Assembly: GCA_044356455.1 (NCBI GenBank)
Contig: JBIKWF010000044.1
Location: 1 to 32,139, forward strand
DNA: 32,139 nucleotides
Direction of reading: 5' to 3'
DNA from: Bdellovibrionota bacterium
Lineage (GTDB): Bacteria > Bdellovibrionota_C > UBA2361 > JBGSMV01
The translations under genes and the position numbers were made by a program. Below, piece by piece: positions 11,735 through 31,978 of the stretch (positions are counted from its first letter, which is position 1; every line of letters starts with the position of its first letter). The notes beneath the pieces are model-generated. The model searched no databases. It saw only the letters and a program-made list of their open reading frames with translations, and was not told where the DNA came from.

Positions 11735-11997
11735 GGAAAGAAGGCCAGGGGGGCGGGGAGTAAAACCTCATTTTGGAGGGGGACGTAATTTTATAACCGT
11801 GCGATGAGGTCCCCACTCGAAGATTCGGTTTTCAGATAAAAACTGTGCGGGATAGGGCAGTTGCAGGTATGTGGGCAGGCGCAAAGCTTCTCCCGGGCTC
11901 TCTCCTCATTTTTCCTATCCGCGATTGCTCACAGCCCCTATGTGCTAGGGCGAGAGGTTTTGCGGCGCCGGAGGGAACCGGCGCCCTACCAAGGGGC

Positions 11998-12498
11998 TCA
12001 TTCCAAAAGTCGAACCTTTCCCTCGTCGCCGAGTGCATTAAATTCTACTCTTCTATTCTTTGCCCATGCATCTTCGCTGTGGCTTACTTCAAGGGGGCTG
12101 CTCTCTCCGAAGCTCATCGTTTCAATGCGCTCTCGAACGATCCCAAGTGATTCAAGGTAGTCCGCTGCGGTAATGGCTCTGCTTTTAGCAAGAGAGAGGT
12201 TGTACTGCGTTGTCCCACGTTCATCTGCATGCCCCTCAATGCGTACGGTCATTCCAGGATTCACCTCTAGCCACGCTGCGTTCTTTTGCAGAGTACGTTT
12301 GCTACCCTCTGAAAGGTCATATCTATCAAAAGCAAAGTAAACGTTTTTCATTTGGTAGCTCTCGGCAGCCACTTGAGTTGACCCTGGCTGCATCATTGCT
12401 CGTGGTTCGTCATACACAACGGCGCGTGTGCGGCACGCGCATCCGGCGCATGCGGCAAGGGAAACTATCCCGATAAGAAGTCTGAATGTTGGTTTCAT
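11998..12498 (-). CDS. pal: Peptidoglycan-associated lipoprotein (Pal/OmpA C-like domain)
   Basis: Lipobox (LAAC or CAGC) after ATG 12498; VYFAFDRYDL, IEGHADERGTTQYNLSL, SFGESSP and WAKNRRVEF motifs. Confidence 0.88.
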   Translation of the reverse strand: MKPTFRLLIGIVSLAACAGCACRTRAVVYDEPRAMMQPGSTQVAAESYQMKNVYFAFDRYDLSEGSKRTLQKNAAWLEVNPGMTVRIEGHADERGTTQYNLSLAKSRAITAADYLESLGIVRERIETMSFGESSPLEVSHSEDAWAKNRRVEFNALGDEGKVRLLE

Positions 12499-12590
12499 AA
12501 ATCGGTACCTTTTTGTTTGGTGATCTATCGCACCCAGAGTCAACACCTTGGGTCATGCCTGTTCTTGTACGAAAGTTTGCGGCCCTCATG

Positions 12591-12606
12591 TATGACGTGT
12601 GTCATA
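12591..12606. promoter_or_regulatory. Crp/Fnr-type palindromic operator TATGAC-GTGT-GTCATA
   Basis: Perfect 6-4-6 palindrome between divergent pal and DUF1328. An extended -10 (TG-c-TATCTT, 12625-12633) has its hexamer 21 nt downstream. Confidence 0.75.
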
Positions 12607-12685
12607 GGGCGCCTTTCATTCTGCTGCTATCTTCGCTCACAAGAGCTCGGCTCACGGTGAGGCCGACAAAATCTGGAGATTTTTT

Positions 12686-12853
12686 ATGTTAAATTGGGCA
12701 CTCACTTTTCTCGTCCTTGCAATAGTTGCCGCAGTACTTGGATTCGGCGGATTGGCTGCAGACTCGGCCTACATTGCAAAGATACTCTTCGTGGTCTTTC
12801 TTGTAGTGGCTGTGATAAGTTTCGCCACAGGTCGTCGTGTTAATATTGGATAG
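12686..12853 (+). CDS. ytjA: DUF1328 (YtjA/UPF0391) small membrane protein, 55 aa; absent from the ORF track
   Basis: GGAG SD at 12675-12678. Translation [55 protein letters not shown] matches the family pattern. Confidence 0.93.
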
Positions 12854-12894
12854 GGATGAGTGTTCGGCCTCGTTACGTGGCAAGAATAGAAAGA

Positions 12895-12933
12895 AGCCGT
12901 CCTCTGAAAGCCAGGTGGCTACTGAGGACGGCT
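12895..12933 (-). terminator. Putative intrinsic terminator between convergent DUF1328 and SYLF genes
   Basis: AGCCGTCCTC/GAGGACGGCT 10-bp stem followed by a T-rich tract on the minus strand. Confidence 0.6.
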
Positions 12934-12955
12934 CGGCTGCCTGTCCCGTATTTAA

Positions 12956-13669
12956 CTACGGAAGAAGCTTGGTAAGCCTCTGAGAATATCTCGTGGTATC
13001 GGGCGTCTCTCGTCCCTCAAGTAGTTCAGTATAATCCACCGCTTTGCCGTAATAGCTGGTAATCGCTTCGTCATCTTTGCTCATGGTTCCACCATTGACT
13101 GATGCGCCGGCAAAAAGCCCTTCGCTTCTACTGTAAGCGATGACTCCCGCCCGTGAAGTGTCAATGCTGCTATCAAAGTTCCCGGCAACGGCACTTACGT
13201 CAGTTCCAAGCGCGAATCGCCCGCGTCTCAGGGCCTGCACGGCGTCGTTGTTTTGAAAAAAGAATACCAAATCGGCGGATTTGGCACCTGCTTGGAGACC
13301 AAGACTTGCTTGGTTGATTGAGATAGCCCCAGGGGTGCTCCACGTATTATCAGAGCTTTTGCACATCGCGAGACCATTTCCGTGAGTCCCTCCTACAAGA
13401 AGAGCTCCCGTAATGACATTCGGGAAAATAGCTACGCAACGCGCATTGCTGAGCACACTTGCCGGAACTTCCCCATGAGAACCTCGTACTACGGCAGAAT
13501 AGACGGCCGCAGAATCGTCAACTAGTTTATGGAAGCGAGCGCGATCCTTAGAATCTCCCATGCGTGCACGCATATTCATCTCCTGACTTTCAGCCATGAG
13601 AGGAGTAGGTGGTGTTGCCAAGGGAAGGCTCATCAGAGTGGCGAGCGCCAAAAGTATTGTTCGTTTCAT
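12956..13669 (-). CDS. Lipid-binding SYLF (Ysc84 actin-binding-like) domain protein, secreted
   Basis: Signal peptide; ARCVAIFPNV, GGTHGNG, SLGLQAGAKSADLV and YSRSEGLFAGASVNG motifs. Confidence 0.9.
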   Translation of the reverse strand: MKRTILLALATLMSLPLATPPTPLMAESQEMNMRARMGDSKDRARFHKLVDDSAAVYSAVVRGSHGEVPASVLSNARCVAIFPNVITGALLVGGTHGNGLAMCKSSDNTWSTPGAISINQASLGLQAGAKSADLVFFFQNNDAVQALRRGRFALGTDVSAVAGNFDSSIDTSRAGVIAYSRSEGLFAGASVNGGTMSKDDEAITSYYGKAVDYTELLEGRETPDTTRYSQRLTKLLP

Positions 13670-13690
13670 AAATGTTTTCCTTTCTTTTCT

Positions 13691-13966
13691 TTAAAATCTG
13701 AAGCGGGGAGTAGTAGGGCTGCTGCTAAAACCACGTAAGAGCACAAGGAGAAGAACCGCGCCGATAAGGGCGGTGCTGGTATTTCCCATCCAGGCTCCCG
13801 CAGGGAACTCGAACCCCGCCTTAAAGAGAGCTCCGCCAGTCACTGCCCCTACGATTCCCACGCTAAAATCGTTGATGACGCCCTGAGGGGCCTCCCCCGG
13901 GAACCACGCCGTAGTGCACCAGCCCGCAACGAGACCAATCAGAATCCACAGCAGAATATTTTCCAT
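13691..13966 (-). CDS. GlsB/YeaQ/YmgE family stress-response membrane protein
   Basis: ATG 13966 with an AGGAG SD; WILIGLVAGW, VGIVGAVTGG and ALIGAVLLL motifs. Confidence 0.88.
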   Translation of the reverse strand: MENILLWILIGLVAGWCTTAWFPGEAPQGVINDFSVGIVGAVTGGALFKAGFEFPAGAWMGNTSTALIGAVLLLVLLRGFSSSPTTPRFRF

Positions 13967-14092
13967 ACAAAAACTCCTCAAACCGTTCTGGTAGCCCGCG
14001 GTTTACTCAAGTAAAGCTGAGGTGAAGAGTGAGAGACTTCACGGTGCTTGGCTTCCGCTGTCAGAGGTTGTCTCAAAAAGCACCTAGTGAGG

Positions 14093-14108
14093 TATGACCT
14101 CAGTCATG
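14093..14108. promoter_or_regulatory. Crp/Fnr-type operator TATGAC-CTCA-GTCATG
   Basis: Lies between divergent GlsB/YmgE and hlyIII. TATTTT at 14131-14136 is 22 nt downstream. Confidence 0.7.
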
Positions 14109-14191
14109 GTACCCTGCAGAGAGTACGTCCTATTTTCTCTCTCTTTTTGCAGGAGTCAGTCGCTCCTGGCGCTACTTTTTTGTTGCACTAC

Positions 14192-14866
14192 ATGAAATGG
14201 ACCCTTCGTCTAAGAGAACCTTTTTCTTCTGCTTCCCATCTATCTGGTGCGATTGCGGGAGTTTTTGGCGCGGCGTATCTCCTGAGCTGCTGTGACCAGA
14301 GCTGGACATCAGTCCTCGGCATTCTTGTATACAGCCTCGCTCTTGTCGGGCTTTTCCTCGTGAGCGGCCTTCTCCACGGACTGCACTGCTCTGAGGAGAC
14401 CATTGAAAGGCTTGAGCGATTGGACTACGCGGCGATTTATTTCTTCATCGCCGGGACCTACACGCCCATTTGTCTCTTTGTTATTCGTGGCTGGTTTGGA
14501 GCCGGGCTGCTGGCCGCGGAATGGGGGCTTGCTTTTGTGGGCGCCTGGACCGCACTGGCGAGAGGGCAGTATACCAGGGCAGGCCTCCCATACGGTAAGC
14601 GCGAGCGTACTACTCAAGTGGCCCTTTTCTTGGCGATGGGCTGGGCATTTGTACTTGCCCTTCCTTCGCTCTCGAAGGCTCTTAGCCCCATGCCATTTGC
14701 ACTCCTATTACTTGGGGGCTTTTTCTACTCGGTCGGGGCTGTGGTATTTGCACTAAATAAGCCCAATCTCTTTCGTGCACGCTGTTCCGCTCACGATTTC
14801 TGGCACTTGCTTGTGCTCCTCGGAAGCTCCGCGCATTTCGCAGCGATTGCTCAAGTCGTGCGCTAA
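14192..14866 (+). CDS. Hemolysin III / PAQR family membrane protein (TrhA-like)
   Basis: LREPFSSASH, RLDYAAIYFFIAGTYTP, GGFFYSVGA and HDFWHLLVLLGSSAHF motifs. ATG 14192 preferred over TTG 14048. Confidence 0.92.
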   Translation: MKWTLRLREPFSSASHLSGAIAGVFGAAYLLSCCDQSWTSVLGILVYSLALVGLFLVSGLLHGLHCSEETIERLERLDYAAIYFFIAGTYTPICLFVIRGWFGAGLLAAEWGLAFVGAWTALARGQYTRAGLPYGKRERTTQVALFLAMGWAFVLALPSLSKALSPMPFALLLLGGFFYSVGAVVFALNKPNLFRARCSAHDFWHLLVLLGSSAHFAAIAQVVR

Positions 14867-14895
14867 GAGTGCCCCCCCCGTAGAGAAATGCCTCA

Positions 14896-15504
14896 TCAAC
14901 GGGCGCAGGGCGCGCAAGCCATTCGCCAAGCCTGAATAACATTCTTGAGAGCGACCTCGGCCGCTTCCGCATGAACTCGAGGAGCTTCCTTGCTGATTTC
15001 TCGGGCCACTACCTCAGGCACTAAGGTGCCAATTTCAACGAGTAGGGGGAGGAGATTCTCTATATGTTTGAGAGCAACGGAGGCAATATCGTGGCATTTT
15101 AGGGCCAACGCCGAGGTATGTAGCAGCGTATTATTTAAGGCAACGGTATTCAGCGCGGAGAAATCATCTCTCAGGATTCGCGAGATTCTTCTTTGCTCTC
15201 TTCGTTCTTCTTCTCGTGAGCTGGGGTTGCTGCCCCTATTGGAGCGAGGCTCTCGCTTCCCCTCTGTGAGGGAACCATTTGCGAGGGTAAGGGGAACGTC
15301 GCGCTCGAGCTGATCAAGGAGCTCGTTAAGAGGGGTGAAATGTCCTTCGAGGGCCGTCTTTGTTTTTTCAAGCAGTGCCCTGGCATCAGCGTACTCTGCG
15401 CACTGTACTTCATGAAGTTGCTCCTCGACGTTCCGAAGGAGTTGCTCCTCTAAGGCGATTTGTTCCCTCAGATACTGTTTGAGAGTATCGATGTGATTTT
15501 CCAT
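14896..15504 (-). CDS. Ferritin-like four-helix-bundle protein (DUF892/YciF-like)
   Basis: ATG 15504 with a GAGGAG SD; amphipathic helices YLREQIALEEQL, LEGH, ILRDDFSAL and LLHTSALAL. Family assigned from pattern only. Confidence 0.6.
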   Translation of the reverse strand: MENHIDTLKQYLREQIALEEQLLRNVEEQLHEVQCAEYADARALLEKTKTALEGHFTPLNELLDQLERDVPLTLANGSLTEGKREPRSNRGSNPSSREEERREQRRISRILRDDFSALNTVALNNTLLHTSALALKCHDIASVALKHIENLLPLLVEIGTLVPEVVAREISKEAPRVHAEAAEVALKNVIQAWRMACAPCAR

Positions 15505-15593
15505 TACGCAACTCCTCTTGCACTTCGTAACCTTAGCCTTCGCAGGTCTCGTCCTTTCTGGCGATGATTCTGCGAGCACAATTTCTTACTCAC

Positions 15594-15609
15594 TATGAGG
15601 ATGGTCATG
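15594..15609. promoter_or_regulatory. Crp/Fnr-type operator TATGAG-GATG-GTCATG
   Basis: Overlaps the regulator's stop codon and lies about 90 nt upstream of the ferritin-like gene. CAGAAT on the minus strand (15572-15567) is 21 nt away. Confidence 0.65.
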
Positions 15610-16420
15610 CCTCAACAAGGAGCTGTAGCTCGTCTAGCTTTAGGATTCGAATGATACCGGGACGAGAAATGTCAAGAATACCATCGCGCTGCATTTGACG
15701 TGTGACTCGAATAGCGGTCTCTGGGGTGGTCCCGGTCAGGTCGGCCAACTGTTGGCGAGTAAATCTGATAGTAGGGGAATCCTTTTGAGGTAAGGTCTCT
15801 GCGAATTTGAGTGCAAGACTTGAAAGAACGGCCGCAATGCGAATCTCAACTCTGTCATGCGCAAGGCCTCGCGACAGACGATAGGACGACTGCAGGCAAA
15901 GGATGAGATGGCCAACTAAGAGGCGAAAGAGCTCTGGCCGAGCCCGAAGAACGTCGTCGAAGGCGCGGATCGGCATCATGATTACGCGCGTTTTGCGAAT
16001 AGGACGCGACGTGAGCTGCGCGGGTACGCGCTGCTCGGCTAAGTTAAGAAGAAGGCCAAACGTATCTCTTGATTGCAACAGCTCTACAATAAGCTCCTTT
16101 CCATTGATCGAGGTTTTGAGCATGGCAATCAGCCCAGACATTACAATAAATCCGTAGAGACTTTGATCGTCTCCCTCAATGGCAATGCTTTCACCACTGG
16201 CATAGTTCGCAATTCTGCACGTTGCGGCAAGTGCTCTGAGCTCGCCGGAAGGGAGCTCGCGTAGCTCGTGGAGTGAGCGAAGGAAATCAAAAATTTCCGC
16301 ACTCTCATTCCCATCAAGCGTCCTCGAATCTGCGATTTTTGCTCTGATAATTCCTCTTGGGTTGGGAGTAGTGTTTTGTGTCGCGAGGCTAGTGACGGGT
16401 GTGGGTTGATGAGTGTCCAT
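15605..16420 (-). CDS. Crp/Fnr family transcriptional regulator
   Basis: cNMP-type beta-barrel (FIVMSGLIAMLKTSINGKELIV), HDRVEIRIAAVL, and HTH TRQQLADLTGTTPETAIRV. Confidence 0.93.
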   Translation of the reverse strand: MDTHQPTPVTSLATQNTTPNPRGIIRAKIADSRTLDGNESAEIFDFLRSLHELRELPSGELRALAATCRIANYASGESIAIEGDDQSLYGFIVMSGLIAMLKTSINGKELIVELLQSRDTFGLLLNLAEQRVPAQLTSRPIRKTRVIMMPIRAFDDVLRARPELFRLLVGHLILCLQSSYRLSRGLAHDRVEIRIAAVLSSLALKFAETLPQKDSPTIRFTRQQLADLTGTTPETAIRVTRQMQRDGILDISRPGIIRILKLDELQLLVEA

Positions 16421-16589
16421 GGCTTACCATGGCACATCTCGGGTTTGAATGGAGTTATATTTCATAATGCGGGTCACGTGAGTTCTCTGCCCCCCCCTGT
16501 GCAAGTCCACCTTTCAGCTCATGTCGCTTGAGAGCCACTGGGAGGGGAAAGAGGCTGCCTCATCTACAGCGAAGATGGAGCGTTAGGCG

Positions 16590-16605
16590 TATGATCTTCG
16601 TCATA
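16590..16605. promoter_or_regulatory. Crp/Fnr-type operator TATGAT-CTTC-GTCATA
   Basis: Lies between the regulator and the 40-aa ORF/glucan synthase. TATGAT (16626-16631) is 20 nt downstream. Confidence 0.7.
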
Positions 16606-16658
16606 GGTGCACGAGCTAATCTGACTATGATGCTCGCTCAGAAAGTGGAGCAATAGTT

Positions 16659-16781
16659 ATGATACAGGTTACAAAAAGAACTCGGGCCGTTGTTTCTGCT
16701 GCCGCAGAGGAAGATTTACCTCCCTACGCCTGTGGAAACGTCTTCGTGGCCGATGCCGATGAGGTATTCCAGGTTCAGTAA
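16659..16781 (+). CDS. Putative 40-aa small protein; absent from the ORF track
   Basis: GGAG SD at 16647-16650, ATG 16659, MIQVTKRTRAVVSAAAEEDLPPYACGNVFVADADEVFQVQ, TAA-TAG double stop, upstream promoter elements and a downstream hairpin. Confidence 0.6.
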   Translation: MIQVTKRTRAVVSAAAEEDLPPYACGNVFVADADEVFQVQ

Positions 16782-16786
16782 TAGAC

Positions 16787-16820
16787 ACCCCATGGCATCA
16801 CCTCACTGATGCCATGGGGT
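16787..16820 (+). terminator. Strong hairpin after the small ORF (terminator or attenuator)
   Basis: Perfect 14-bp stem ACCCCATGGCATCA/TGATGCCATGGGGT with a 6-nt loop, followed by TCCCCTTTTC. Confidence 0.65.
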
Positions 16821-16962
16821 TCCCCTTTTCCTCCGTACTCAAGTTTCCCCCATCAGGACCCGTAGAGCGGGTTCGAGAGGAGTTACTATAAAGGCGCTTT
16901 TTGCGGCAAAGTTTTGGCCTCGCGTAGCGCAGGTCGGTAAGGGAGCGTTTTGCGTTCCCTCG

Positions 16963-19900
16963 GTGCGAGAACGAGAGGACCCCATTCGCGCAGAAAACCT
17001 TTCGCGTGAGGGGTTAAGTGAGCTTGCGCGCGGCCTCGCCGAGGAGCAGCAGCTTGCACCGTCACGAAAAGGAGATAGGCGACTATTCCAGCGTTTTGAA
17101 GAAAACGCGATCGTATTGGACCGCATCTGCTCCGAACTGTTTCAGGCTGCGCAAGATCAGGAAGTTCTTTCCTCCGGGGCAGAATGGCTCATCGACAATT
17201 ATTACATTATTCAAGAACAGATTCGTGATATCAGAAGGGACTTCCCGCACGGATATTATCACACATTGCCTAAACTTGCTGAGGGGGCCTATGCGAAGTT
17301 TCCTCGTGCCTATCAACTTGCGGTAGAGGTTGTTGCGCATACTGATTCATCTATTTATGGTGAAACTCTTGCCGCTTTTATTCAAGGATTTCAGGGGAAA
17401 GCCGTCCTTGAGACGGGCGAGCTTTGGGCAATCCCGAGCCTTTTGCGTCTCGTGTTAATTGAAAATCTGCGCCGTCTTGCGGTGGTTAACCTTGAGGAGA
17501 CCCGTCAACGCAAGGAAGCTGAGTCACTTGCCGGGGAGATCATCGGTCCGCAGGAGCTGAAGTCCGGCACTGATGCGCTACTTTCACTCGCGACGAGGCT
17601 TCACATTGATCCTCATTGCCTTCGTCAGTACTCGGTCCATCTCATGCGGCGCCTACGCGAGCAGGGCCCGAAGGCAGGACTTACGTTACGCTGGATAGAG
17701 GAGCGTCTAAGAGAAGAGGGGCACGATCCTGATGAACTATTGCGTTTGGAGCAACACCGCCAGGCGGCCAACCAGATTTCTATTGGTAACGCCGTGAGCG
17801 CACTGCGGCGCATTAGTGGCATGAATTGGAGTGACTGGGTTGAGGGTGTGAGCGAGGTTCACCGCGCGTTGGCAAGCGATCCTCTTGGTAAGTACGAAGA
17901 GTGTGATTTCGCAACCCGCGATTGGTATCGGCACAGTATTGAGCGCCTGGCTCGAGCGGTGAAAAAAACTGAGGTTGAGATTGCTCGAGCTGCTCTGCTG
18001 CTCGCCGAGAGTGCGGTGATTGCTCAAGGCAGCGATGTTAGGATGAGGCACGTGGGCTATTTCCTCAGTGGAAACGGACTTGCCATCCTGGAACGTGAGG
18101 TAGGCTACCAGTCCTCGGGTCATAGGCGTTTGGGATCTTTTGGCGACCGTCATGCAGTTGCACTGTATCTTGGCGCAATTGCAACTCTTACTGCGATGCT
18201 ATTAGCTGGACTCTTCGAGTTCATGCGGGGGCAGGGAGGGACTCTTCTGGAGGCTTGGCTAGCGACCTTCGTCGCGGCAATTCCCCTCAGCGATCTTGCC
18301 TGCAATATCGTGCAATGGGCGTGTGTACGAGGTAGTGCGCCTAGTTTTCTGCCCAAGCTTGAGATGGGGAAGATAATCCCAGCCGAACACAAAACGATTG
18401 TAGCGATTCAAGCAATTTTGCAGGGCAAGGAATCAGTTCTTGAGATAATTTCCGATCTTGAAGTCCGGTACTTAGCTAACGGGGAAGAGAATCTGAGCTA
18501 CGCACTGCTGGCGGACCTACGCGACGCAGAAGGTGAGGAAATACCAGAAGACGATGAAGTAATCAGCTATGCAGAGCTGCTCGTAAGAACACTCAATGAG
18601 CGGCATTTCCGCGATGGGCCAGGGCGGTTCTTTCTTCTTTTTCGCCGCCGCGTCTGGAACCCCGTGCAGGGAATTTTCATGGGCTGGGAGCGTAAGCGCG
18701 GCAAGATAGAAGAGTTTAATCGATTCCTTCTTGATCGCGGGGTTACTACGTTCCGTATGCTCGTGGGCGAAGCCTCACAGCTCAGGGGGGCCGCATACGT
18801 TATCACTCTTGATTGTGACTCTCAGTTGCCGCGGGGTGTGGCAAAAAAGCTTATCGGTACCATTGCACATCCCCTCAACCGTCCACGACTCGACCTCGAA
18901 AGACGCATCGTGGTTGAGGGGTACGGTATCATTCAGCCTCGTATTGGCATCGCGCTTACGAGTGCTAGGGCGTCGAGATTCGCCGCAGTTTTCTGTGGCC
19001 ACGCAGGACTCGATCCCTATACGCAGCTTGTTTCAGATGTGTACCAGGATCTATTTCACGAGGGGTCTTTTTGTGGGAAAGGGATCTATGATGTTCGTGC
19101 ATTCGAGCTTGCACTCCGAGACCGCGTCCCAGAAAACCAGTTGCTGAGTCACGATCTTTTTGAGGGAGGTTTCGCGAGAGTTGGTCTCGCAAGTGATATC
19201 GAGCTCTTTGACGGATTCCCCTCACGCTATCATGCGTTTGCGAAACGACTACATCGCTGGGTGCGAGGTGATTGGCAGCTCCTTCCTTGGATGCTGGGTT
19301 ATATTCCTGATGCTCAGGGAAAGAAGTATCGCTCGCCGCTCTCGGTGCTCTCGCGTTGGAAACTCTTGGATAATTTGCGACGTAGCTTGGTGGCTCCTTG
19401 CTGTTTCCTCCTTTTCTGTGGCGGCGCTGCGCTCCTTCCGGTTAACACGTTGCTATGGATTCTCATGCTCGTGCTCGTGATTGCGTTTCCTGTGTATGGC
19501 AACGCAGCGAACGCGCTTCTCATCCCCACGGGCGGAATCTCCGTGATGAGTCATGCCCGCGCCGCGGGGCGTGATTTTGTCTTTCAGTCTAAACAAGCAT
19601 TTACTGCACTGAGTTTTCTTTCCTATCAGACATTTTTGATGCTGCATGCCATTGGGGTGACCTTGTATCGCGTTCTTATTTCGCATCGGGACCTTTTGGA
19701 GTGGGAGCCCGCTTCGCACGCGGAGAGACGACTTGGCGTTAACCTTAGTGCGTTCCTGCGACAAATGGGACCCGGAGTGGCGCTGGCGCTTATGGCGGCC
19801 GTGATGATACTTTTGTGTGCTCCCTCTCAAATGATCTATGCGTCGCCTCTGTTGCTACTTTGGGCAGCGTCTCCTTTTCTTGCGCGCTGGTTAAGTGCGC

Positions 19901-22900
19901 CAATTCCTCGGGTGACTGCGGAGCTAGGTGTGCGGGACCGCGAGCGGCTCCTTTCCATGGGGTGGGAGACCTGGAGGTATTTTGACGAGCAGATTAGCCC
20001 AGAGAACAATTATCTGGCCCCCGATAATATTCAGCTTACGCCCTACCGCACCGTTGCAACGCGAACCTCGCCGACAAATATTGGTCTTTCGATTCTTAGC
20101 GTAATCTCAGCCTACGATTTAGGGTACCTTAGCCTTGTTGCAGCTACTGTGCGGCTAGGGAATATCATGCAAACGCTTGGCACTTTGGAGCGTGTACACG
20201 GGCATTTTCTTAATTGGTATGACACCAAAACACGAGAGTCACTCGCTCCACGGTACGTGTCAGCCGTGGATAGCGGTAACTTGGTGGGGCATCTTATTGC
20301 CGCGAAGAACGCTGTGGAGAGCTTCCGCACCGCGCCACTTGTGACGCTGCAGCGGTATCAGCACCTTGCGCGGCGCTTAGAGAAGTTTCGCCTGATTGCG
20401 GGAGCAGGGCGAGATAAGTTTAAGAGCGTCTCCGTGGGCCTCGCCGATCTTCTCGCCCAGGCGCCTTCGGTCGGGGCTCGAGGGCTATTAGTAGAACTCG
20501 AGGTCGTGTCTGAGTTCCTGAATGCTACCTTGGATGGACCCGAGTTCTTGGCGCCCTCAGTACTAGGCGATTTTGAGCTCTTTCGCCGAGAGCTTGCTGA
20601 GCTCCTTGAGGTCCGCCCCCTGCTTCTTTCAGGCAATCAGTCCAAGGGGGATGATCCCGGGGCAACGCTTCACGCACTTCGGATGCACCATCCAGAGAAT
20701 GCAGCGGTAGGTGTGATAGCAGATACCCTCGAGTTATTTATAGAGGGGGCTCAAGGCATTATAAGAGAGGTTGATTTCGGCTTTCTCTTCGATACCGATA
20801 AGCAGCTCTTTACTATCGGTTTCCACGTGGACAATGGAAGGCGTGATAGTGGCTTCTACGATCTGCATGCGTCAGAGGCACGTCTCATGAGCTTTGTGGC
20901 GATTGCGACAGGCCAAGTCCCGCAAAAGCATTGGTTCATGCTGGGCCGAACGTTAGTGAATGCGCCGGGAGGGGCCGCCCTCGCTTCTTGGACAGGGACT
21001 ATGTTCGAGTATCTGATGCCGCTATTAGTGATGCGGGACTACCCTGGCACTCTTCTTTCGGAGACCTGTCGCGCGGTGGTGGCTACGCAGCAGCTCTACG
21101 CTGCTGGCAAAGGCTTACCGTGGGGAATATCGGAGTCAGCGTATGGGGCCGTAGATTTCGAGAGGACATATCAATACAAGGCCTTTGGTGTTCCTAGTCT
21201 AGGGTTGAAGCGAGGGCTTGGCGGAGATCTTGTGATTTCTCCCTATTCCACATTCTTAGCCCTTGCCATCAACAGTGCCGCTGCCATGGAGAACCTCGAC
21301 CGCCTAGAGAAGGAGGGCGCTCGCGGCGAGTATGGCTTTTACGAGGCAATAGATTACACCCCAGAGCGGCTGAGAAGTGGAGAATCCCGCCATGTGGTGG
21401 AGTCTTATCTTGCGCTGCATCAGGGTATGAGTCTCGTCGCCATAAATAACGCGCTACAATCAGGCGTGATGCAGGAGCGCTTCCACCGAGACCCCTGGGT
21501 GCGAGCGACCGATTTACTCTTGCAAGAGCGTTTCCCTGACGCACTTCCGGTTGCGGAACCGAAACACTCGCAAGTTCTTCCGGCTTTGGTTGCCCCCAAT
21601 GATGCTCGCGTCGCATCAGTTGAGCGTTTCACCACGCCTCACACGCAAGTGCCGCGTACTCGTGTTCTGTCAAATGGGCGCTACAGTGTGCTCGTAGATA
21701 ATGCCGGAATTGGTTTTTCATCATGTGACCGGGATATATCGCTCACGAGATGGCGAGAAGATGCTCTTCTTGGGCAGTACGGAACGTTTATTTATCTAAG
21801 AGATTTGGAGAATGGCAAGGTTTGGTCGGCTGCGTATCACCCTTCGCGTGTCGAGCCAGAGTTTTACGAAGTGTTGTTCAGCCCCGACAAGGTAGAGTTT
21901 AATCGACGTGACGCCGGAATTACGCTTCATACAGAAATTGCAGTTTCACCTGAAGATCAAGTCGAGGTTCGTAGAGTCACCATTTCGAATGTGGGGAATC
22001 GGCACCGAAGCCTTGAAATTACGAGCTTTGGCGAAGTTGCCCTCGGCAATATGTTTGCTGATAGCGCACATCCCGCTTTTGCCAAGATGTTCATTGAGAG
22101 CGAATTTGATGCAGAGCTCGACGCGCTCTTGTTCGCTCGTCGTCCGCGCTCGAAACATGAGGAGACACTATTTCTCATGCATACGATGGCTCTGGATCGT
22201 GTGGTGGAGCCAATACAATATGAGACCTCGCGCGCGGCGTTTATTGGAAGAGGACGTTCCATCGCGAACCCTCTGGTCTTTACCGATCGCCGGAAATTAT
22301 CGAAAGCAGTCGGTTCGATTATTGACCCAATTTTTTCTCTTCGAACACGCGTAGAGCTCGACGAGGGTACTTCCAATGTGGTGGTCTTCGTTACAGGATT
22401 TGCAAAATCGAGAACAGAAATTAGGGCGCTCGCAGAAAGGTACCGGGATCAGCTCTCTGTGACGCGAGCTTTTGAGATGGCCTGGAGCCAGAGCAGTATC
22501 GAGCTTCGGCACGAGCAGTTTTCGGTTCGACAGGTCCATGCGTTTCAGCGCCTGATTACAGCTCTTCTGTTTAACATTGAAGGCGTAAGGGGAAGCCAAG
22601 CTTCGATTGCCACCAATCGTCTTACGCAGTCGGGGTTCTGGAGGTTCGGCGTTTCCGGAGATTTGCCTATCGTATACCTCACGGTATCTGATCCTGGGCA
22701 TGTTAAGCTGGTGCGGGAACTGGTACTTGCACACCAGTACATTCGAATGCATGGGATTAGCTTTGAGCTTGTTATTCTTAACAAGTACCCGGGCGGTTAT
22801 CTTCAATCCTTTCAAGAAGAGCTGGACTTCCTCGTGCGCTCGGGCTACGCAGGCGCCGTCGTAGATAAGAAAGGAGGCATTTTCCTCCGCACCCTTTCGG

Positions 22901-25557
22901 CCCTCTCAGCGGAGGAGCTGTGTTTGCTTGAAGCAGTCGCTCGAGTGGTGCTGGTCGGAGCACGCGGCCTACTTTCGTCTCAGCTCCTATTCGGCAACGA
23001 GCCGAAGGAGCCTTCGCAGCGAAGAAGGGCGAACCTCGGGTGGGAGCAAGAAGTCTTGGCCGAGACGTCACTGCCAGCTTCCGGAGCCCCCGAGAAAGGG
23101 AACGGGATAGGAGACTTTTTAGGAGAGGGCGGCACCTATCAGATAATCCTCAAGGGTAAAGCACTTCCGCCGCAGCCTTGGTCGAATGTGATTGCAAATC
23201 CGTCTTTTGGGTTTCTTGTGACGGAATCGGGGGGCGGATTCACCTGGTCGCAGAACAGTCATGAGAATAGGCTCTCCCCCTGGAGCAACGATCCTATAGG
23301 AGATATGAGTGGAGAGATTCTCTATCTTCGAGATGTCGACCGCGGCAATTTTTGGTCTGCAACTCCTCGGCCCATTTCCCCCGGAGGGACCTCTTCGGTT
23401 ACGCACAGTTTTGGCGAAACGTGTTTCATTCGGAACGAACATGAGGTGACGTCTCGTCTCACTATTTCGGGGAGCGTGGCGGACCGGGTGAAGTTTTGGA
23501 ATCTTACGTTATCTAATACGGGTGGGCAGGTTCGCACGCTCGAAGTTTTCCTGTATGTGGAATGGGTGCTTGGAGTTCAGCGCAGCGAAGGCGCTCGGAT
23601 GATTGTTGCAGACTTTGATGTGCGTTCTCAGTCTCTGCACGCCCGCAACTATTACAATAATGAATTTGCTGGGGCGACCCTCTACCTTGGTTCAACTGCG
23701 AGTGCTGTTGAGTACACCACAAGTCGTGCCGAATTTCTCGGGAGGCATGGCGACCATGCTCATCCCCGTATACTTGTCGAAGGGGGTATGGGGGCACGAT
23801 CCGCCCTATTTTCAGCTCAGAGGCGCGCGAGGGTAGAATTGAGCCAGAAGGTCGGCGCGGGTTTTGATTCGTGCGGAGTGCTTAAGGTGGACGTGGTTCT
23901 GGCCCCTCATGCCAAGCGCGAGCTGGTGTTCTTTATGGGAGAAGAGAGCTCAGCCGAAAGCGCCAAGAAAAAAGCTCTGCACTATGGTTCTCTCCCGTCC
24001 TATCGGCGTGAGCGAGAGCAGGCGCATGCCCGTTGGGAGTCGGATCTTGGCGCCATTCGTGTTCGTACGCCCAATCGTGGATTCGATTTGATGGTGAATG
24101 GGTGGCTCCTGTATCAGACGATTTCCTCCAGGATTCATGGCAGAAGCGGAGTCTACCAAAGTGGCGGCGCCATTGGCTTCCGAGACCAGCTTCAGGACAG
24201 CCTTGCGCTCCTGTGGAGTCACCCCGAGCGGACGCGCGAGCAGATTCTTCTACACGCTTCTCACCAATTCCCCGAGGGAGATGTGCAGCATTGGTGGCAT
24301 CCACCGACAGGACGCGGCGTGCGTACGCGCATTTCAGATGACTACCTTTGGCTTCCGTTTGCAGTAGCTCGTTATCTTGAGGCGACCGAAGAACGGGGAG
24401 TACTTGAGGAGCAGGTGCCATTTGTCGAGGGACCAAAGCTTGATGCGCAGGAAATGGAAATTTACATGTTGCCGCAGGTTACCCGACTCAAAATGACTCT
24501 TTATGAACATTGTATTCTTGCCCTCGATAGAGCCTCGGCTTTGGGCGTCCATGGCTTACCACTTATTGGCGGCGGAGATTGGAATGATGGGATGAACGAG
24601 GTGGGGCGCGAGGGGAAAGGGGAGAGTGTTTGGCTCGCATGGTTCCTTAGCAACTGCCTTAGGAAGTTCGCTCCTTTGGCAAGGGATAGGGGAGAGATCG
24701 AGCGCGCAAAAAGTTATGAGGCGAGGGCAGAGGCGCTTGTAGGTTCAATTGATGAGCATAGTTGGGATGGCTCCTGGTATCGCCGGGCCTACTTTGATGA
24801 CGGTACTCCCTTAGGGAGCGCAGAGAGTGAGGAGTGCAAGATTGATTCCTTGGTTCAGTCTTGGAGTGTCATCGCGGGAGGCGGACGGATAGACCGCCAG
24901 CAGGCTGCGATGTCTGCGGTACGTACTCACCTCGTTAACGAATCCACAAAAGTCGTGCGCTTACTTGCGCCACCCTTTAATCGCTCATCGCTTGATCCTG
25001 GGTATATCAAGGGGTATCTCCCCGGTATTCGGGAGAACGGGGGCCAGTACACGCACGCCGCTGTATGGTATCTCATGGCAACTGCTTTGCAGGGGAAAGG
25101 AAAGGAGGCGTTCGAGCTTTTTGATATGATAAATCCCATCACCCATACTTCTACGAAGGATGGGGTGGCCCGCTATCAAGCAGAGCCCTATGTCCTGTGT
25201 GGAGACGTGTATGCCGAAGCCCCGCATGAAGGGCGGGGCGGGTGGAGCTGGTATACGGGCTCTGCAGGCTGGATGTATCAGGTCGCGATAGAGCAACTTG
25301 TGGGACTCAAAGTGCGCGGGAGCTTTTTTACCATCGAGCCTTGTGTGCCCCCAGACTGGAAAGAATTCTCCTTTGAATACTGCCGGCGGGGACTTCGTTA
25401 CCAAGTTTCGATTTTAAATCCAGATGGTGTTGAAACTGGTGTGGTGCGCATCGAAGCGGACGGGCGAATCTGCGACGAAAAGAGAGTGCGGTTTATAGAA
25501 GAATCAGCACCTCGAGATGTCCGGGTAGTGGTGCACATGGGTGCCTCGCTCATATAG
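16963..25557 (+). CDS. ndvB: Cyclic beta-1,2-glucan synthase (Cgs/ChvB/NdvB: GT84 synthase, cyclising transglycosylase domain, GH94 phosphorylase)
   Basis: 2864 aa; EWLIDNYY, GWERKRGK, TLDCD, LLSHDLFEG, RWVRGDWQL, RTSPTNIGL, MFEYLMP, PWGISES, QSGGAIGFRDQLQD, GDWNDG, ENGGQYTH and GRGGWSWYTGSAGW motifs. The start may be ATA at 16888. Confidence 0.95.
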   Translation: MREREDPIRAENLSREGLSELARGLAEEQQLAPSRKGDRRLFQRFEENAIVLDRICSELFQAAQDQEVLSSGAEWLIDNYYIIQEQIRDIRRDFPHGYYHTLPKLAEGAYAKFPRAYQLAVEVVAHTDSSIYGETLAAFIQGFQGKAVLETGELWAIPSLLRLVLIENLRRLAVVNLEETRQRKEAESLAGEIIGPQELKSGTDALLSLATRLHIDPHCLRQYSVHLMRRLREQGPKAGLTLRWIEERLREEGHDPDELLRLEQHRQAANQISIGNAVSALRRISGMNWSDWVEGVSEVHRALASDPLGKYEECDFATRDWYRHSIERLARAVKKTEVEIARAALLLAESAVIAQGSDVRMRHVGYFLSGNGLAILEREVGYQSSGHRRLGSFGDRHAVALYLGAIATLTAMLLAGLFEFMRGQGGTLLEAWLATFVAAIPLSDLACNIVQWACVRGSAPSFLPKLEMGKIIPAEHKTIVAIQAILQGKESVLEIISDLEVRYLANGEENLSYALLADLRDAEGEEIPEDDEVISYAELLVRTLNERHFRDGPGRFFLLFRRRVWNPVQGIFMGWERKRGKIEEFNRFLLDRGVTTFRMLVGEASQLRGAAYVITLDCDSQLPRGVAKKLIGTIAHPLNRPRLDLERRIVVEGYGIIQPRIGIALTSARASRFAAVFCGHAGLDPYTQLVSDVYQDLFHEGSFCGKGIYDVRAFELALRDRVPENQLLSHDLFEGGFARVGLASDIELFDGFPSRYHAFAKRLHRWVRGDWQLLPWMLGYIPDAQGKKYRSPLSVLSRWKLLDNLRRSLVAPCCFLLFCGGAALLPVNTLLWILMLVLVIAFPVYGNAANALLIPTGGISVMSHARAAGRDFVFQSKQAFTALSFLSYQTFLMLHAIGVTLYRVLISHRDLLEWEPASHAERRLGVNLSAFLRQMGPGVALALMAAVMILLCAPSQMIYASPLLLLWAASPFLARWLSAPIPRVTAELGVRDRERLLSMGWETWRYFDEQISPENNYLAPDNIQLTPYRTVATRTSPTNIGLSILSVISAYDLGYLSLVAATVRLGNIMQTLGTLERVHGHFLNWYDTKTRESLAPRYVSAVDSGNLVGHLIAAKNAVESFRTAPLVTLQRYQHLARRLEKFRLIAGAGRDKFKSVSVGLADLLAQAPSVGARGLLVELEVVSEFLNATLDGPEFLAPSVLGDFELFRRELAELLEVRPLLLSGNQSKGDDPGATLHALRMHHPENAAVGVIADTLELFIEGAQGIIREVDFGFLFDTDKQLFTIGFHVDNGRRDSGFYDLHASEARLMSFVAIATGQVPQKHWFMLGRTLVNAPGGAALASWTGTMFEYLMPLLVMRDYPGTLLSETCRAVVATQQLYAAGKGLPWGISESAYGAVDFERTYQYKAFGVPSLGLKRGLGGDLVISPYSTFLALAINSAAAMENLDRLEKEGARGEYGFYEAIDYTPERLRSGESRHVVESYLALHQGMSLVAINNALQSGVMQERFHRDPWVRATDLLLQERFPDALPVAEPKHSQVLPALVAPNDARVASVERFTTPHTQVPRTRVLSNGRYSVLVDNAGIGFSSCDRDISLTRWREDALLGQYGTFIYLRDLENGKVWSAAYHPSRVEPEFYEVLFSPDKVEFNRRDAGITLHTEIAVSPEDQVEVRRVTISNVGNRHRSLEITSFGEVALGNMFADSAHPAFAKMFIESEFDAELDALLFARRPRSKHEETLFLMHTMALDRVVEPIQYETSRAAFIGRGRSIANPLVFTDRRKLSKAVGSIIDPIFSLRTRVELDEGTSNVVVFVTGFAKSRTEIRALAERYRDQLSVTRAFEMAWSQSSIELRHEQFSVRQVHAFQRLITALLFNIEGVRGSQASIATNRLTQSGFWRFGVSGDLPIVYLTVSDPGHVKLVRELVLAHQYIRMHGISFELVILNKYPGGYLQSFQEELDFLVRSGYAGAVVDKKGGIFLRTLSALSAEELCLLEAVARVVLVGARGLLSSQLLFGNEPKEPSQRRRANLGWEQEVLAETSLPASGAPEKGNGIGDFLGEGGTYQIILKGKALPPQPWSNVIANPSFGFLVTESGGGFTWSQNSHENRLSPWSNDPIGDMSGEILYLRDVDRGNFWSATPRPISPGGTSSVTHSFGETCFIRNEHEVTSRLTISGSVADRVKFWNLTLSNTGGQVRTLEVFLYVEWVLGVQRSEGARMIVADFDVRSQSLHARNYYNNEFAGATLYLGSTASAVEYTTSRAEFLGRHGDHAHPRILVEGGMGARSALFSAQRRARVELSQKVGAGFDSCGVLKVDVVLAPHAKRELVFFMGEESSAESAKKKALHYGSLPSYRREREQAHARWESDLGAIRVRTPNRGFDLMVNGWLLYQTISSRIHGRSGVYQSGGAIGFRDQLQDSLALLWSHPERTREQILLHASHQFPEGDVQHWWHPPTGRGVRTRISDDYLWLPFAVARYLEATEERGVLEEQVPFVEGPKLDAQEMEIYMLPQVTRLKMTLYEHCILALDRASALGVHGLPLIGGGDWNDGMNEVGREGKGESVWLAWFLSNCLRKFAPLARDRGEIERAKSYEARAEALVGSIDEHSWDGSWYRRAYFDDGTPLGSAESEECKIDSLVQSWSVIAGGGRIDRQQAAMSAVRTHLVNESTKVVRLLAPPFNRSSLDPGYIKGYLPGIRENGGQYTHAAVWYLMATALQGKGKEAFELFDMINPITHTSTKDGVARYQAEPYVLCGDVYAEAPHEGRGGWSWYTGSAGWMYQVAIEQLVGLKVRGSFFTIEPCVPPDWKEFSFEYCRRGLRYQVSILNPDGVETGVVRIEADGRICDEKRVRFIEESAPRDVRVVVHMGASLI

Positions 25558-25573
25558 CGCAGCGGCCGCAGGT

Positions 25574-25599
25574 GCTTACCATTCTTTCAAATGGTAAGC
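25574..25599. terminator. Hairpin between convergent glucan synthase and csbD genes
   Basis: GCTTACCATT/AATGGTAAGC 10-bp stem with a 6-nt loop; weak U-tract. Confidence 0.45.
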
Positions 25600-25640
25600 T
25601 TATGCTTACGGACCGGGGAGGGGCCCGCAAGCAATATTGG

Positions 25641-25886
25641 TTAGATGGTCGGTTGACTCTTGCTCTTCGAAAAGTCTGAAGGGCTGCAGCTGCATTCCTT
25701 CATGAAAGAACCAAGTTCCTTGCTCGCCTGGTCAGAGGTATAGCCGTAGCGTTCGCGCAGCTTGCCAATGAGCTGCTCTTTCTTTCCTTTAATGATCACG
25801 ATGTCATCATTCGTGAGCTTGCCCCACTTTTCTTTTATCTGCCCTTTGAGCTGTTCCCATTTTCCTTCGAGTTCATTGCTATTCAT
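25641..25886 (-). CDS. csbD: CsbD/YjbJ family general stress protein
   Basis: MNSNELEGKWEQLKGQIKEKWGKLTNDD...GKKEQLIGKLRERYG. Confidence 0.93.
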   Translation of the reverse strand: MNSNELEGKWEQLKGQIKEKWGKLTNDDIVIIKGKKEQLIGKLRERYGYTSDQASKELGSFMKECSCSPSDFSKSKSQPTI

Positions 25887-25959
25887 GATGAGTGCCTTTC
25901 TTGTTTGTTAGTAGGTCCATTCTGTCCTCGCGATCTTAGAAGCTTCGAGCGCGTCAGCG

Positions 25960-25975
25960 CATGACGGTGCTCAGG
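25960..25975. promoter_or_regulatory. Crp/Fnr-type operator CATGAC-GGTG-CTCAGG; candidate bidirectional promoter
   Basis: -10-like hexamers lie 21 nt away on both strands: TAGATT (25997-26002, +) and TAAGAT (25938-25933, -). Confidence 0.6.
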
Positions 25976-26042
25976 GTCCGTAGGGCCACGCGGTAGTAGA
26001 TTTCATCGAAGGAGCTTCTAAGGAGCCATTGAGAAATAAGTT

Positions 26043-26255
26043 ATGAATAAAATTCTAGTCAGCATGAGTGTCTGTGCGTTCCTAGTTCTGTGTAGCTGCC
26101 AAGAAAAGGGAGCGGTTGAAAAAGCGGGAGAACGTGCAGATGAAATAGTCGATAACGTGAAACACGGAGAACCTCCGCTTAAGAAAAAGGGGCCGATCGA
26201 GAAGATCGGTCAGAGCATTGATGAGACGCTGGAGCGCGCAGGCGAGCGCAAGTGA
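26043..26255 (+). CDS. Small lipoprotein with two EKxGxxxDE repeats
   Basis: MNK, a hydrophobic stretch and an LCSC lipobox; KGAVEKAGERADE and KGPIEKIGQSIDE internal repeat. Confidence 0.8.
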   Translation: MNKILVSMSVCAFLVLCSCQEKGAVEKAGERADEIVDNVKHGEPPLKKKGPIEKIGQSIDETLERAGERK

Positions 26256-26594: not shown

Positions 26595-27995
26595 ATGAAC
26601 GAGAGTAACTTAACACCGGCACAAAAACGGTTTGGCTCTGTAGTATCCCAGGCCTGGTTTCCTCCACAGCCCGATGTTCTGGCACGCGTCCGTTCCGGTA
26701 TTGCCTCGGGGGAGTTACTTAAGGATAGAACGAGTCTCTATCGGGAACTAAGCAACGATCCCAGTCTCTTTCTTCTTGGTGCCAGGGAACTCTCGCGTCG
26801 TGCATCTCGCGCTGCTATCAAGCCTGCGCTCAGTCTTGCCCCCCGTGCGTTAATAGAGACAAGTTCTGATGAGGAGCTCACCGAGATTTTTGCTGCGCCG
26901 ATCGATTCGTTTGCGCGTATTCCCTATCATTCAGGGGCTGAAATCTCTCAGCGTCGCTCGGTGCAGGCGATGGTCAGTGCGGTCACTACGGACATGCTCG
27001 AAGCCGCTTTAGGAAAGTCTGACGATTTGGGCTATTCCTGCGCGCTTTTTCGGCAGTTGGGTCTCATGCTTATTGCGTGGAATCATCCGCATGTGTACGC
27101 CCGTATTTCAGCATCACTTGAGCCAGACGAGTCACTGGATGAGGCGCTTGCGCGAGTTCTTGGTCTTTCGCCTTCAGCGTTAGGGCTGCACTTGGCAAGG
27201 GAGTGGCGTGTCTGCCCAACGATCCGGGCGTCGATGGGCGATGAGGTTCCTGACGAATCTCCAGAGGTGCGAGAGACAGGAAAGTTTCTCAGAGGAATGT
27301 GTGAGGTCGGCGAGAAGCTTGCGCAACTTGCCGATGCCTCCGTGCGCTCCACTCGCCTCAAGCAGTTTGACGAAGTTCGCTCCCTAGTGCTGCAAAGATT
27401 AGGACCGGATGGGCTCACGCAGATATTTGATCGCGTAGAGGCCGTGTGCAGAAATATTCGCGAGGTCTTCCCTGCGCTCTTTGCGCCTCTGCCGCAAGGG
27501 CAGGGACCAGCAAGGACCTGCAATGAGAACCCTTTTCTGTCAAAAACACCGCGGTTTTTCCAAGAGCACCTTCAGTTTGTCTATGGCCGATTTTCGAAGG
27601 GAGCTGCACCTGAAGAGCTGCGGAGTGTGCTTGACCAAGCGATACGTTCCCTTGGATTTAATCGAGCGGCCATTTATCTTCTCGACCCTGTATCTTCAGT
27701 GCTTCACCCTCGAGTCGCTCTCGGGGATTTAGAGCTTTCCTCGGTAAGGGCAGTCCAAATTGCCGCGCCTTCGGGATCTGCTGCAGAAATGATAGCGCGA
27801 GCTATTACCACAGAAGACCTGGTGATTAACGGCAAGGCAATGCGCCAAGTCGTAATTCGTGTCGGGGGAGAGCGTATACTCGGTGCGCTTTCGCTTGAGA
27901 TCTCAAGAGAACTCTTTGATGCACGGAGCGAGATGCTTGGCGATTGCGTGCGGGCTGTGGCGCTTACGATTTCGCACCTCATTCGGGTCAGCTAA
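26595..27995 (+). CDS. HDOD-like domain protein with a C-terminal GAF-like region
   Basis: SNDPSLFL, YSCALFRQLGLML, LGLSPSALGLHLAREW; C-terminal LGFNRAAIYLLDP...LGAL; GGAG SD. Confidence 0.65.
   Translation: MNESNLTPAQKRFGSVVSQAWFPPQPDVLARVRSGIASGELLKDRTSLYRELSNDPSLFLLGARELSRRASRAAIKPALSLAPRALIETSSDEELTEIFAAPIDSFARIPYHSGAEISQRRSVQAMVSAVTTDMLEAALGKSDDLGYSCALFRQLGLMLIAWNHPHVYARISASLEPDESLDEALARVLGLSPSALGLHLAREWRVCPTIRASMGDEVPDESPEVRETGKFLRGMCEVGEKLAQLADASVRSTRLKQFDEVRSLVLQRLGPDGLTQIFDRVEAVCRNIREVFPALFAPLPQGQGPARTCNENPFLSKTPRFFQEHLQFVYGRFSKGAAPEELRSVLDQAIRSLGFNRAAIYLLDPVSSVLHPRVALGDLELSSVRAVQIAAPSGSAAEMIARAITTEDLVINGKAMRQVVIRVGGERILGALSLEISRELFDARSEMLGDCVRAVALTISHLIRVS

Positions 27996-31902: not shown

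Positions 31903-31978
<76 letters not shown>

Follow-up and report, generated by a model that had tools for sequence, protein, structure and literature searches.

Crp/Fnr proteins of the class II type act from a site centred at −41.5, the position used by CRP and FNR, and this position together with the TGA-N6-TCA geometry of the palindrome is a hallmark of the family. FixK is the model of a ligand-free Crp protein controlled by its abundance, and Crp/Fnr genes are often found in the csbD and BON clusters of other phyla. The present analysis concerns a gene island at positions 11,998 to 26,255 of a 32,139-nucleotide stretch (the window) from a Bdellovibrionota bacterium (assembly GCA_044356455.1, contig JBIKWF010000044.1; here contig C186 of genome G000, 4.7 Mb, 93% complete), where a palindromic box, ATGA-N6-TCAT, recurs around the gene of a Crp/Fnr-family regulator. 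Comparative sequence evidence makes it likely that the box belongs to a conserved regulon of the class II Crp/Fnr type. The box is an unlisted one, and the regulon is most probably the phylum's general stress response (GTDB phylum, sampled as a single class).

The window regulator shares with Escherichia coli CRP and FNR the fold, the TGA-N6-TCA core, the class II site position, and the glutamate and arginine of the recognition helix. It differs from them in its half-site, which is ATGA and not GTGA or TTGA, in the absence of the cyclic AMP Glu/Arg pair and of the iron-sulphur cysteines, and in its general-stress targets. FixK, DNR, NnrR and HcpR are, like the window regulator, without an iron-sulphur cluster, and have an FNR-like box. 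The boxes listed for regulators of this type were TTGAT, TTGAC, TGTGA, GTAAC and ctTTGcg, with no ATGA string in the main text of the study by Rodionov et al., which describes helix-to-base covariation in the Crp/Fnr family (PMC1274295).

The target families described below overlap those of the alphaproteobacterial general stress response. According to PMC6599016, that response is driven by HWE/HisKA_2 kinases. The PhyR-NepR-EcfG system resembles the present one in its receiver-fused switch protein, in having kinases and receivers within its own regulon and in HisKA_2 input, the last of which is seen here with the fused relatives of the regulator and not in this genome. Its output differs: here a Crp/Fnr activator would act together with the housekeeping sigma factor, and neither a partner switch nor an alternative sigma factor was apparent. 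The sites form a dyad at −41.5 from a sigma-70-type −10 hexamer and are used divergently, which is not the output of an extracytoplasmic function (ECF) sigma partner switch; no search was aimed at PhyR or NepR themselves. A search of the 93%-complete genome for RpoS (TIGR02394) and SigB (TIGR02980) gave no match above cut-off. BfmR is an OmpR-type regulator. The BfmRS two-component system, which controls the general stress and desiccation response of Acinetobacter baumannii in a genome without RpoS (PMC6181384), is a precedent for a sigma-independent general stress regulator; it differs in kinase class and box and is unrelated to Crp/Fnr. No description of the present box or regulon was found in the literature searched; the motif strings matched no paper, although searches by the term Crp/Fnr were weak, as its slash spelling may have gone unmatched.

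The box and its promoters

The five palindromes reported in the initial annotation were all present, with exact cores at 12592, 14094, 15595 and 16591 and a one-mismatch core at 25961.

12591..12606: box 1, centred at −41.5 from TATCTT (12628-12633, + strand), before ytjA
14093..14108: box 2, centred at −42.5 from TATTTT (+ strand, towards trhA) and from a weak CAACCT (− strand, towards ymgE-ysc84)
15594..15609: box 3, overlapping the regulator stop codon and upstream of the YciF-like gene; centred at −41.5 from CAGAAT (15572-15567, − strand)
16590..16605: box 4, centred at −40.5 from TATGAT (16626-16631, + strand); points at a 40-codon open reading frame (ORF) and not directly at the glucan synthase gene
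25960..25975: box 5 (one mismatch), centred at −41.5 for two divergent −10 hexamers, TAGATT (25997-26002, + strand) and TAAGAT (25938-25933, − strand)

Measured from sigma-70-type −10 hexamers, the centres of all five island boxes fall between −40.5 and −42.5, where a class II Crp/Fnr activator would bind. The sites have the form of class II Crp/Fnr operators: a 22-bp-type palindrome with an N6 spacer near −41.5 of a sigma-70 promoter. Promoters with consensus −35 and −10 elements were absent from 11800-17100, compared with 3.0 in shuffled sequence. Box 5 faces both csbD and the small lipoprotein gene, at −41.5 each way. For box 2, the orthologous ymgE and ysc84 genes have a box and a −10 hexamer in three related loci (L037, L035 and L118). 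Box 3 is conserved in L034, L035, L038, L040, L042 and L080. It is not an artefact of the stop codon, since in the orthologue loci L034, L035 and L038 the box stands ahead of the same downstream gene at 16-200 bp from the regulator stop. Autoregulation in this genome was considered and set aside, as box 4 has no −10 hexamer towards the regulator gene; several relatives (L042, L044, L051, L055 and L069) do have boxes a short way ahead of that gene.

The frequency of the box elsewhere in the genome gave a divided answer. The raw genome-wide count of ATGA-N6-TCAT (103, compared with 35-104 at 14 other spacers) and the count in coding DNA (82, compared with 28-89) were unremarkable, whereas in non-coding DNA the N6 box occurred 21 times against a mean of 9.0 at other spacers, and the YATGA..TCATR form 11 times against 2.5. 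Coding and non-coding DNA were separated by gene calls from a hexamer model. The four exact sites in the 1,424 intergenic bases of the island compare with 0.015 expected, a contrast that is overstated because the motif was chosen after the fact.

The box was not confined to the island, contrary to the initial annotation. A fifth exact core lies at 99-112 of the window, with no YAnnnT hexamer at gaps of 21-23 on either side. It stands 288 bp before a collagen-like gene (400-1269), and a collagen-like gene also occurs near the island in L038. A further exact box at C42:6038 lies 81 bp before a DUF4398-OmpA lipoprotein gene pair (C42:6038-7358), and the DUF4398 orthologue is boxed in genome G001. 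A second stress cluster (C172:16849-19700) contains two boxes before the gene of a 137-amino-acid membrane protein; its pair of yciF (DUF892) genes is accompanied by a one-mismatch box.

Conservation, targets and the regulator protein

A close relative of the regulator (E < 1e-20) was found in 31 of the 61 genomes searched, own genome included, and the regulator family in 62 of 96 genomes of the phylum. The footprinting set comprised 36 regions (525 kb) around 36 such matches outside the own genome, selected for the regulator relative only. In these loci ATGA-N6-TCAT occurred 58 times, compared with 4-17 at 14 other spacers, which supports conservation of the box beside regulator orthologues. 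Eight close metagenome loci showed the same preference (10 compared with 0-3). The N6 palindromes built on TTGA, GTGA or CTGA were enriched neither in the non-coding DNA of this genome nor in the 36 loci, in agreement with the proposal that the box is distinct from those of CRP and FNR. The consensus from 55 sites with full flanks was yATGA(T/C/G)-N4-(A/G/C)TCATr, with ATGAT-N4-ATCAT as its best form. A YAnnnT hexamer that places the site centre at −41.5 was present in 21 of 110 orientations (mean of 3.7 at 63 other offsets).

These elements were combined into a composite pattern (box, 22 bases, YAnnnT), with the reversed pattern as control. Thirty relatives that carry the regulator held 156 composite sites (control 30), compared with 41 (control 38) in 30 that lack it. 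This difference is overstated, since loci of these same genomes had served to define the pattern and the kin are related. In an independent set of 23 genomes of other orders, the counts were 123 (control 11) for the 14 carriers of the regulator and 18 (control 20) for the nine non-carriers. The box thus occupies a fixed activator position and tracks with the Crp/Fnr protein, so that this protein, as the initial annotation had suggested, is the likely activator that switches on the stress programme.

The target set consisted of 122 genes downstream of composite sites, taken from the 36 regulator loci and from 80 regions around genome-wide sites in 12 carrier genomes. After short doubtful ORFs and same-family repeats were left out, 100 of the 122 were scanned against Pfam, and 73 of these had a match. 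Approximately 31 of the 100 belonged to families that we take to be of general-stress type, and for about 20 of these the site was not near the regulator gene. These included BON (6), DUF892 (4), CsbD (3), DUF1328 (3) and glycine zipper (3) proteins. One boxed target each was found for Ku, LigD_N, KGG, YmgE, DUF2383, DUF3309, DUF4398, OmpA and Ysc84, and for a YflT-like protein, a cardiolipin-synthase-like phospholipase D protein and a zinc alcohol dehydrogenase. Boxes also preceded the genes of three HisKA_2 kinases and two receivers. The 100 scanned targets in the phylum included no cbb3 oxidase, HemN, universal stress protein, Nor, Nos or Ric, and a denitrification or nitric oxide (NO) detoxification regulon of the DNR, NnrR or HcpR type was not seen among them; it was seen in part of the Bacteroidota relatives described below. 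The earlier statement that the boxes precede general-stress genes is therefore borne out (csbD, ytjA, yciF, BON, KGG, Ku and ligD), although its label of desiccation and osmotic stress is narrower than the evidence.

The island, box positions apart, has the following features.

11998..12498, − strand: Pal-like OmpA lipoprotein, divergent from ytjA; regulon membership doubtful, with no −10 hexamer at the class II distance
12686..12853, + strand: YtjA/DUF1328 small membrane protein; conserved target
12956..13669, − strand: Ysc84/SYLF-domain secreted protein; conserved island member
13691..13966, − strand: YmgE-like (transglycosylase-associated) membrane protein
14192..14866, + strand: TrhA/PAQR (HlyIII-related) membrane protein; boxed here, absent among the genes seen in the 36 orthologue loci
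14896..15504, − strand: YciF/DUF892-like helical protein; target and candidate feedback partner, co-occurring with the receiver-less regulator
15605..16420, − strand: Crp/Fnr-family regulator, 271 amino acids, receiver-less, helix GTTPETAIRVT; likely activator of the boxes
16659..16781, + strand: 40-codon ORF with a GGAG ribosome site, directly after the box 4 promoter; possibly a small protein or small RNA
16784..16822, + strand: possible terminator separating the 40-codon ORF from the glucan synthase gene; a hairpin whose core stem has 14 bp (−27 kcal/mol for 16780-16840)
16963..25557, + strand: cyclic beta-1,2-glucan synthase-like protein (GT2, glycoamylase and GH94), 2,864 amino acids; neighbour, probably not a conserved regulon member
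25641..25886, − strand: CsbD family protein; conserved target
26043..26255, + strand: small lipoprotein-like protein, 70 amino acids; conserved in orthologue loci

Recurring neighbours in the 36 loci were csbD, ytjA, ymgE, ysc84, the YciF-like gene and the small lipoprotein gene. The glucan synthase and trhA genes were never present there, and Pal occurred once only, at a locus edge. The links to Pal, which lacks a −10 hexamer at the right distance, and to TrhA, which has one here, are not conserved. The proposed coupling to periplasmic cyclic glucan synthesis was not upheld. In the phylum, 73 of 96 genomes encode the synthase, whether or not they also carry the regulator, and among the 30 synthase loci examined (the best 30 of those 73 genomes) an exact box within 700 bp upstream was found in the own genome only. 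Here the 40-codon ORF and the strong hairpin intervene between box 4 and the synthase gene; the hairpin was not called in a terminator scan, and no homologue of the ORF was seen in the examined loci or the own genome. A composite site approximately 650 bp upstream of the synthase gene in G080, a genome outside the 30 loci, counts against rejecting the link. The synthase is at most a local recruit by read-through. An Rfam scan returned a tRNA as its sole match. By eye, from the translations, the flanks of the window encode an SRAP-like protein (1320-2024) and a flagellin-like protein (2157-3506); the other flank genes are those of an HDOD protein (26595-27995), an H+-pyrophosphatase (28066-30519) and the tRNA (31903-31975).

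The regulator matched Pfam cNMP_binding and HTH_Crp_2 and has a predicted CRP fold (pLDDT 85), which are the features of the Crp/Fnr superfamily, and it scored below every named NCBIfam cut-off. It does not have the hallmarks of CRP proper: the cyclic AMP residues Glu72 and Arg82 align to Leu123 and Ala134, the score was 57 bits against a cut-off of 266, and the RExxR helix is lacking. Nor does it have those of FNR or FnrL: it has two cysteines that each occur in about half of 55 relatives, an isoleucine for the serine, and no enrichment of TTGA-N6-TCAA. The FixK, FnrL and FtrB models gave 28-38 bits against cut-offs of 211-300. The helix P233-E-T-A-I-R matches neither of the patterns given for CRP (RExxR) and FNR (ExxSR) in PMC3590769. 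Residues E234, I237, R238 and H188 were present in 55 of 55 aligned relatives. The two other Crp proteins of this genome have CRP-type S-R-E-x-V-T-R helices.

A metagenome scan (best 80 of 313 matches) yielded, besides the eight close loci, 72 distant loci (L158-L229; 24-30% identity) assigned to Bacteroidota by Atlas labels and promoter type. E-x-x-I-R was found in 90 of 92 helices of these distant Crp proteins, and the box occurred 118 times, compared with 13-40 at other spacers, in a set that includes near-copies and was picked partly by helix-adjacent similarity, not by the box. The Bacteroidota form is TTATGA-N6-TCATAA, with a TAnnTTTG-like −7 element at gaps of 22-23 in 74 of 236 orientations; no description of this system was found in the literature searched. 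Targets at some of these loci concern NO or respiration (Ric/ScdA, DUF2249, qNor, azurin and FixS, with nosZ nearby), and at others stress genes are found (KGG boxed; Ku, LigD, CinA and a short-chain dehydrogenase/reductase nearby). On a plasmid of Chondrinema litorale, 24.6 kb contain two exact boxes (L260:10061 and 11848), one upstream of nrfH-nrfA-ccsA and the other of a truncated haemoglobin gene, beside a GLRVETVIR regulator, although two sites alone are not beyond chance. At the L158-L229 and L260 loci, Crp proteins with the GLRVETVIR helix commonly occur as tandem paralogues. No other indirect evidence for reading of the box by the Crp protein itself is as strong as this covariation of helix with box, seen in two phyla that differ in promoter grammar.

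Input to the regulator

Most relatives of the regulator are 375-420 amino acids long and carry an N-terminal receiver in which the acidic pocket, the phospho-accepting aspartate and the Lys-Pro pair are kept. Of 22 genomes with this fused form (in one of which a contig end truncates the regulator), 19 had a HisKA_2 kinase, and in 11 the kinase lay within 7 kb. It was found in none of nine genomes with only the short form, and as three strong and three weak matches among 30 genomes without the regulator. The own genome has no HisKA_2 kinase and no separate receiver of the fused type (best match 59 bits, compared with 140-194). No kinase was seen beside short-form regulators among the 61 of 100 listed neighbours that were scanned, which contained one lone receiver (L040). 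In a quick, midpoint-rooted tree, the 12 intact short forms make up one branch nested among the fused forms (SH-aLRT, a Shimodaira–Hasegawa-like approximate likelihood-ratio test, 100), and the receiver was therefore probably lost once. Tandem short-form regulators were noted in genome G035 (L037:9135-11007), which has 16 composite sites, including those of ice-binding-domain and DUF4394 genes.

The close family of the YciF-like protein occurred in 10 of 12 genomes with a high-scoring short form (at least 300 bits; five weaker short or broken copies were not counted) and in G080; otherwise two distant matches were found among 96 genomes. Among 45 further homologues on contigs of at least 2.4 kb, 30 were on a contig exactly equal in size to one with a listed Crp homologue. 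The protein had no Pfam match; its Atlas feature score was 0.92 to clusters with DUF892 in 13-16% of members, and distant matches carry the name YciE-like. It may be a co-inherited target or a NepR-like feedback partner. That it binds the receiver-less regulator as a partner is a tentative and rather unlikely idea.

Alternative explanations and proposed mechanism

Several observations weigh against a general stress regulon under this regulator. A minority of targets (acetate kinase, a phosphoenolpyruvate-synthase-like protein, an HPF-like protein, a Rieske protein and a P-type ATPase) also fit a low-oxygen or dormancy regulon, and many Bacteroidota targets are NO-related. One-mismatch sites in this genome showed no −10 peak (9, 9 and 9 compared with 8.5). 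Nine carriers had 0-1 composite sites (G040, G060, G015, G038, G048, G050, G055, G056 and G063), and G041 and G080, in which no regulator was detected, had 4-5. The relatives compared are not independent of one another, and loci inside the first 30 genomes were the source of the composite pattern. The genome has 16 sigma-region-2 matches, many ECF-sized, which could share in stress control, and no tested feature accounts for the switching of the receiver-less regulator. In G080, where boxes and the YciF-like gene (C24:42737-44424 and C125:4827-5387) occur with no detected regulator, the missing regulator possibly reflects an assembly gap.

The same regulator and box could instead serve a low-oxygen or NO response of the FixK/DNR type, with the invariant His188 binding haem. 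ATGAT-N4-ATCAT is one base per half-site away from the FNR/DNR box TTGATnnnnATCAA (PMC1274295), and the Bacteroidota boxes before Ric/ScdA, qNor, azurin and FixS, in nos loci, and before nrfHA and the truncated haemoglobin gene of C. litorale point the same way, as do a few dormancy-type targets in this phylum. We regard this explanation as improbable, given that none of the respiratory and NO genes listed above occurred among the 100 phylum targets, where CsbD, DUF1328, DUF892, BON, KGG, Ku and LigD recur, that the regulator has no conserved FNR cysteine cluster, and that the fused forms have kinase input. Still less probable is a box read by another transcription factor or a stress sigma factor, with the Crp gene a passenger of the island. 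Genes and boxes can travel as a cassette, G080 holds boxes without a detected regulator, and ECF-sized sigma factors are numerous; the geometry and position of the sites, however, are Crp/Fnr hallmarks, and single boxes serve two divergent promoters, which is impossible for a sigma factor. The helix-box pairing moreover recurs in Bacteroidota with other targets, and the two other Crp proteins here have CRP-type helices. Palindromes arising by chance, or as a by-product of start and stop codons (ATG, TGA) at gene edges, would agree with the unexceptional raw counts, the stop codon in box 3 and the stray site at 99-112, but the spacer-, position- and genome-specific enrichments make this origin extremely unlikely. 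The spacer controls rule it out for the whole set; single sites (99-112 and box 4) may still be due to chance.

Overall, the evidence supports the initial annotation in linking box, regulator and stress genes, and does not support it in confining the regulon to the island and extending it to cyclic glucan synthesis. A Crp/Fnr-controlled general stress regulon would work as follows. The yATGA(B)-N4-(V)TCATr palindromes are the likely sites from which the adjacent Crp/Fnr dimer activates class II promoters otherwise devoid of a −35 element. E234 and R238 would read the TGA core in the manner of E181 and R185 of CRP, and an outer base A, and not T, would go with the isoleucine that stands where FNR has its serine. 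In most of the phylum, a neighbouring HisKA_2 kinase likely switches on the receiver-fused regulator through the phospho-accepting aspartate. In the clade of the window protein, both the receiver and the kinase were likely lost, and the regulator is accompanied instead by the YciF-like gene under box 3; its control may lie in abundance, a ligand or the YciF-like partner.

Most of what is known of general stress responses concerns systems run by sigma factors (RpoS, SigB and EcfG). For an entire uncultured phylum, the regulon described here would name the regulator, define its box and promoter geometry, and add the kinase class acting upstream and a list of targets. At its widest, the proposal is of a separate, sigma-independent general-stress architecture across the phylum, in which a HisKA_2 kinase acts on a receiver-Crp fusion and this in turn on class II promoters with the ATGA-N6-TCAT box. 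A derived clade would have dispensed with phospho-control and would use the co-inherited YciF-like protein as anti-activator, and a rule by which E-T-x-I-R reads ATGA would predict as yet undescribed NO and stress regulons in Bacteroidota. Taken as a whole, this is finely balanced and leans slightly towards the doubtful side. The same helix-box pairing would be a prediction for cultured Bacteroidota, in which it may mark nitrite/NO and stress genes.

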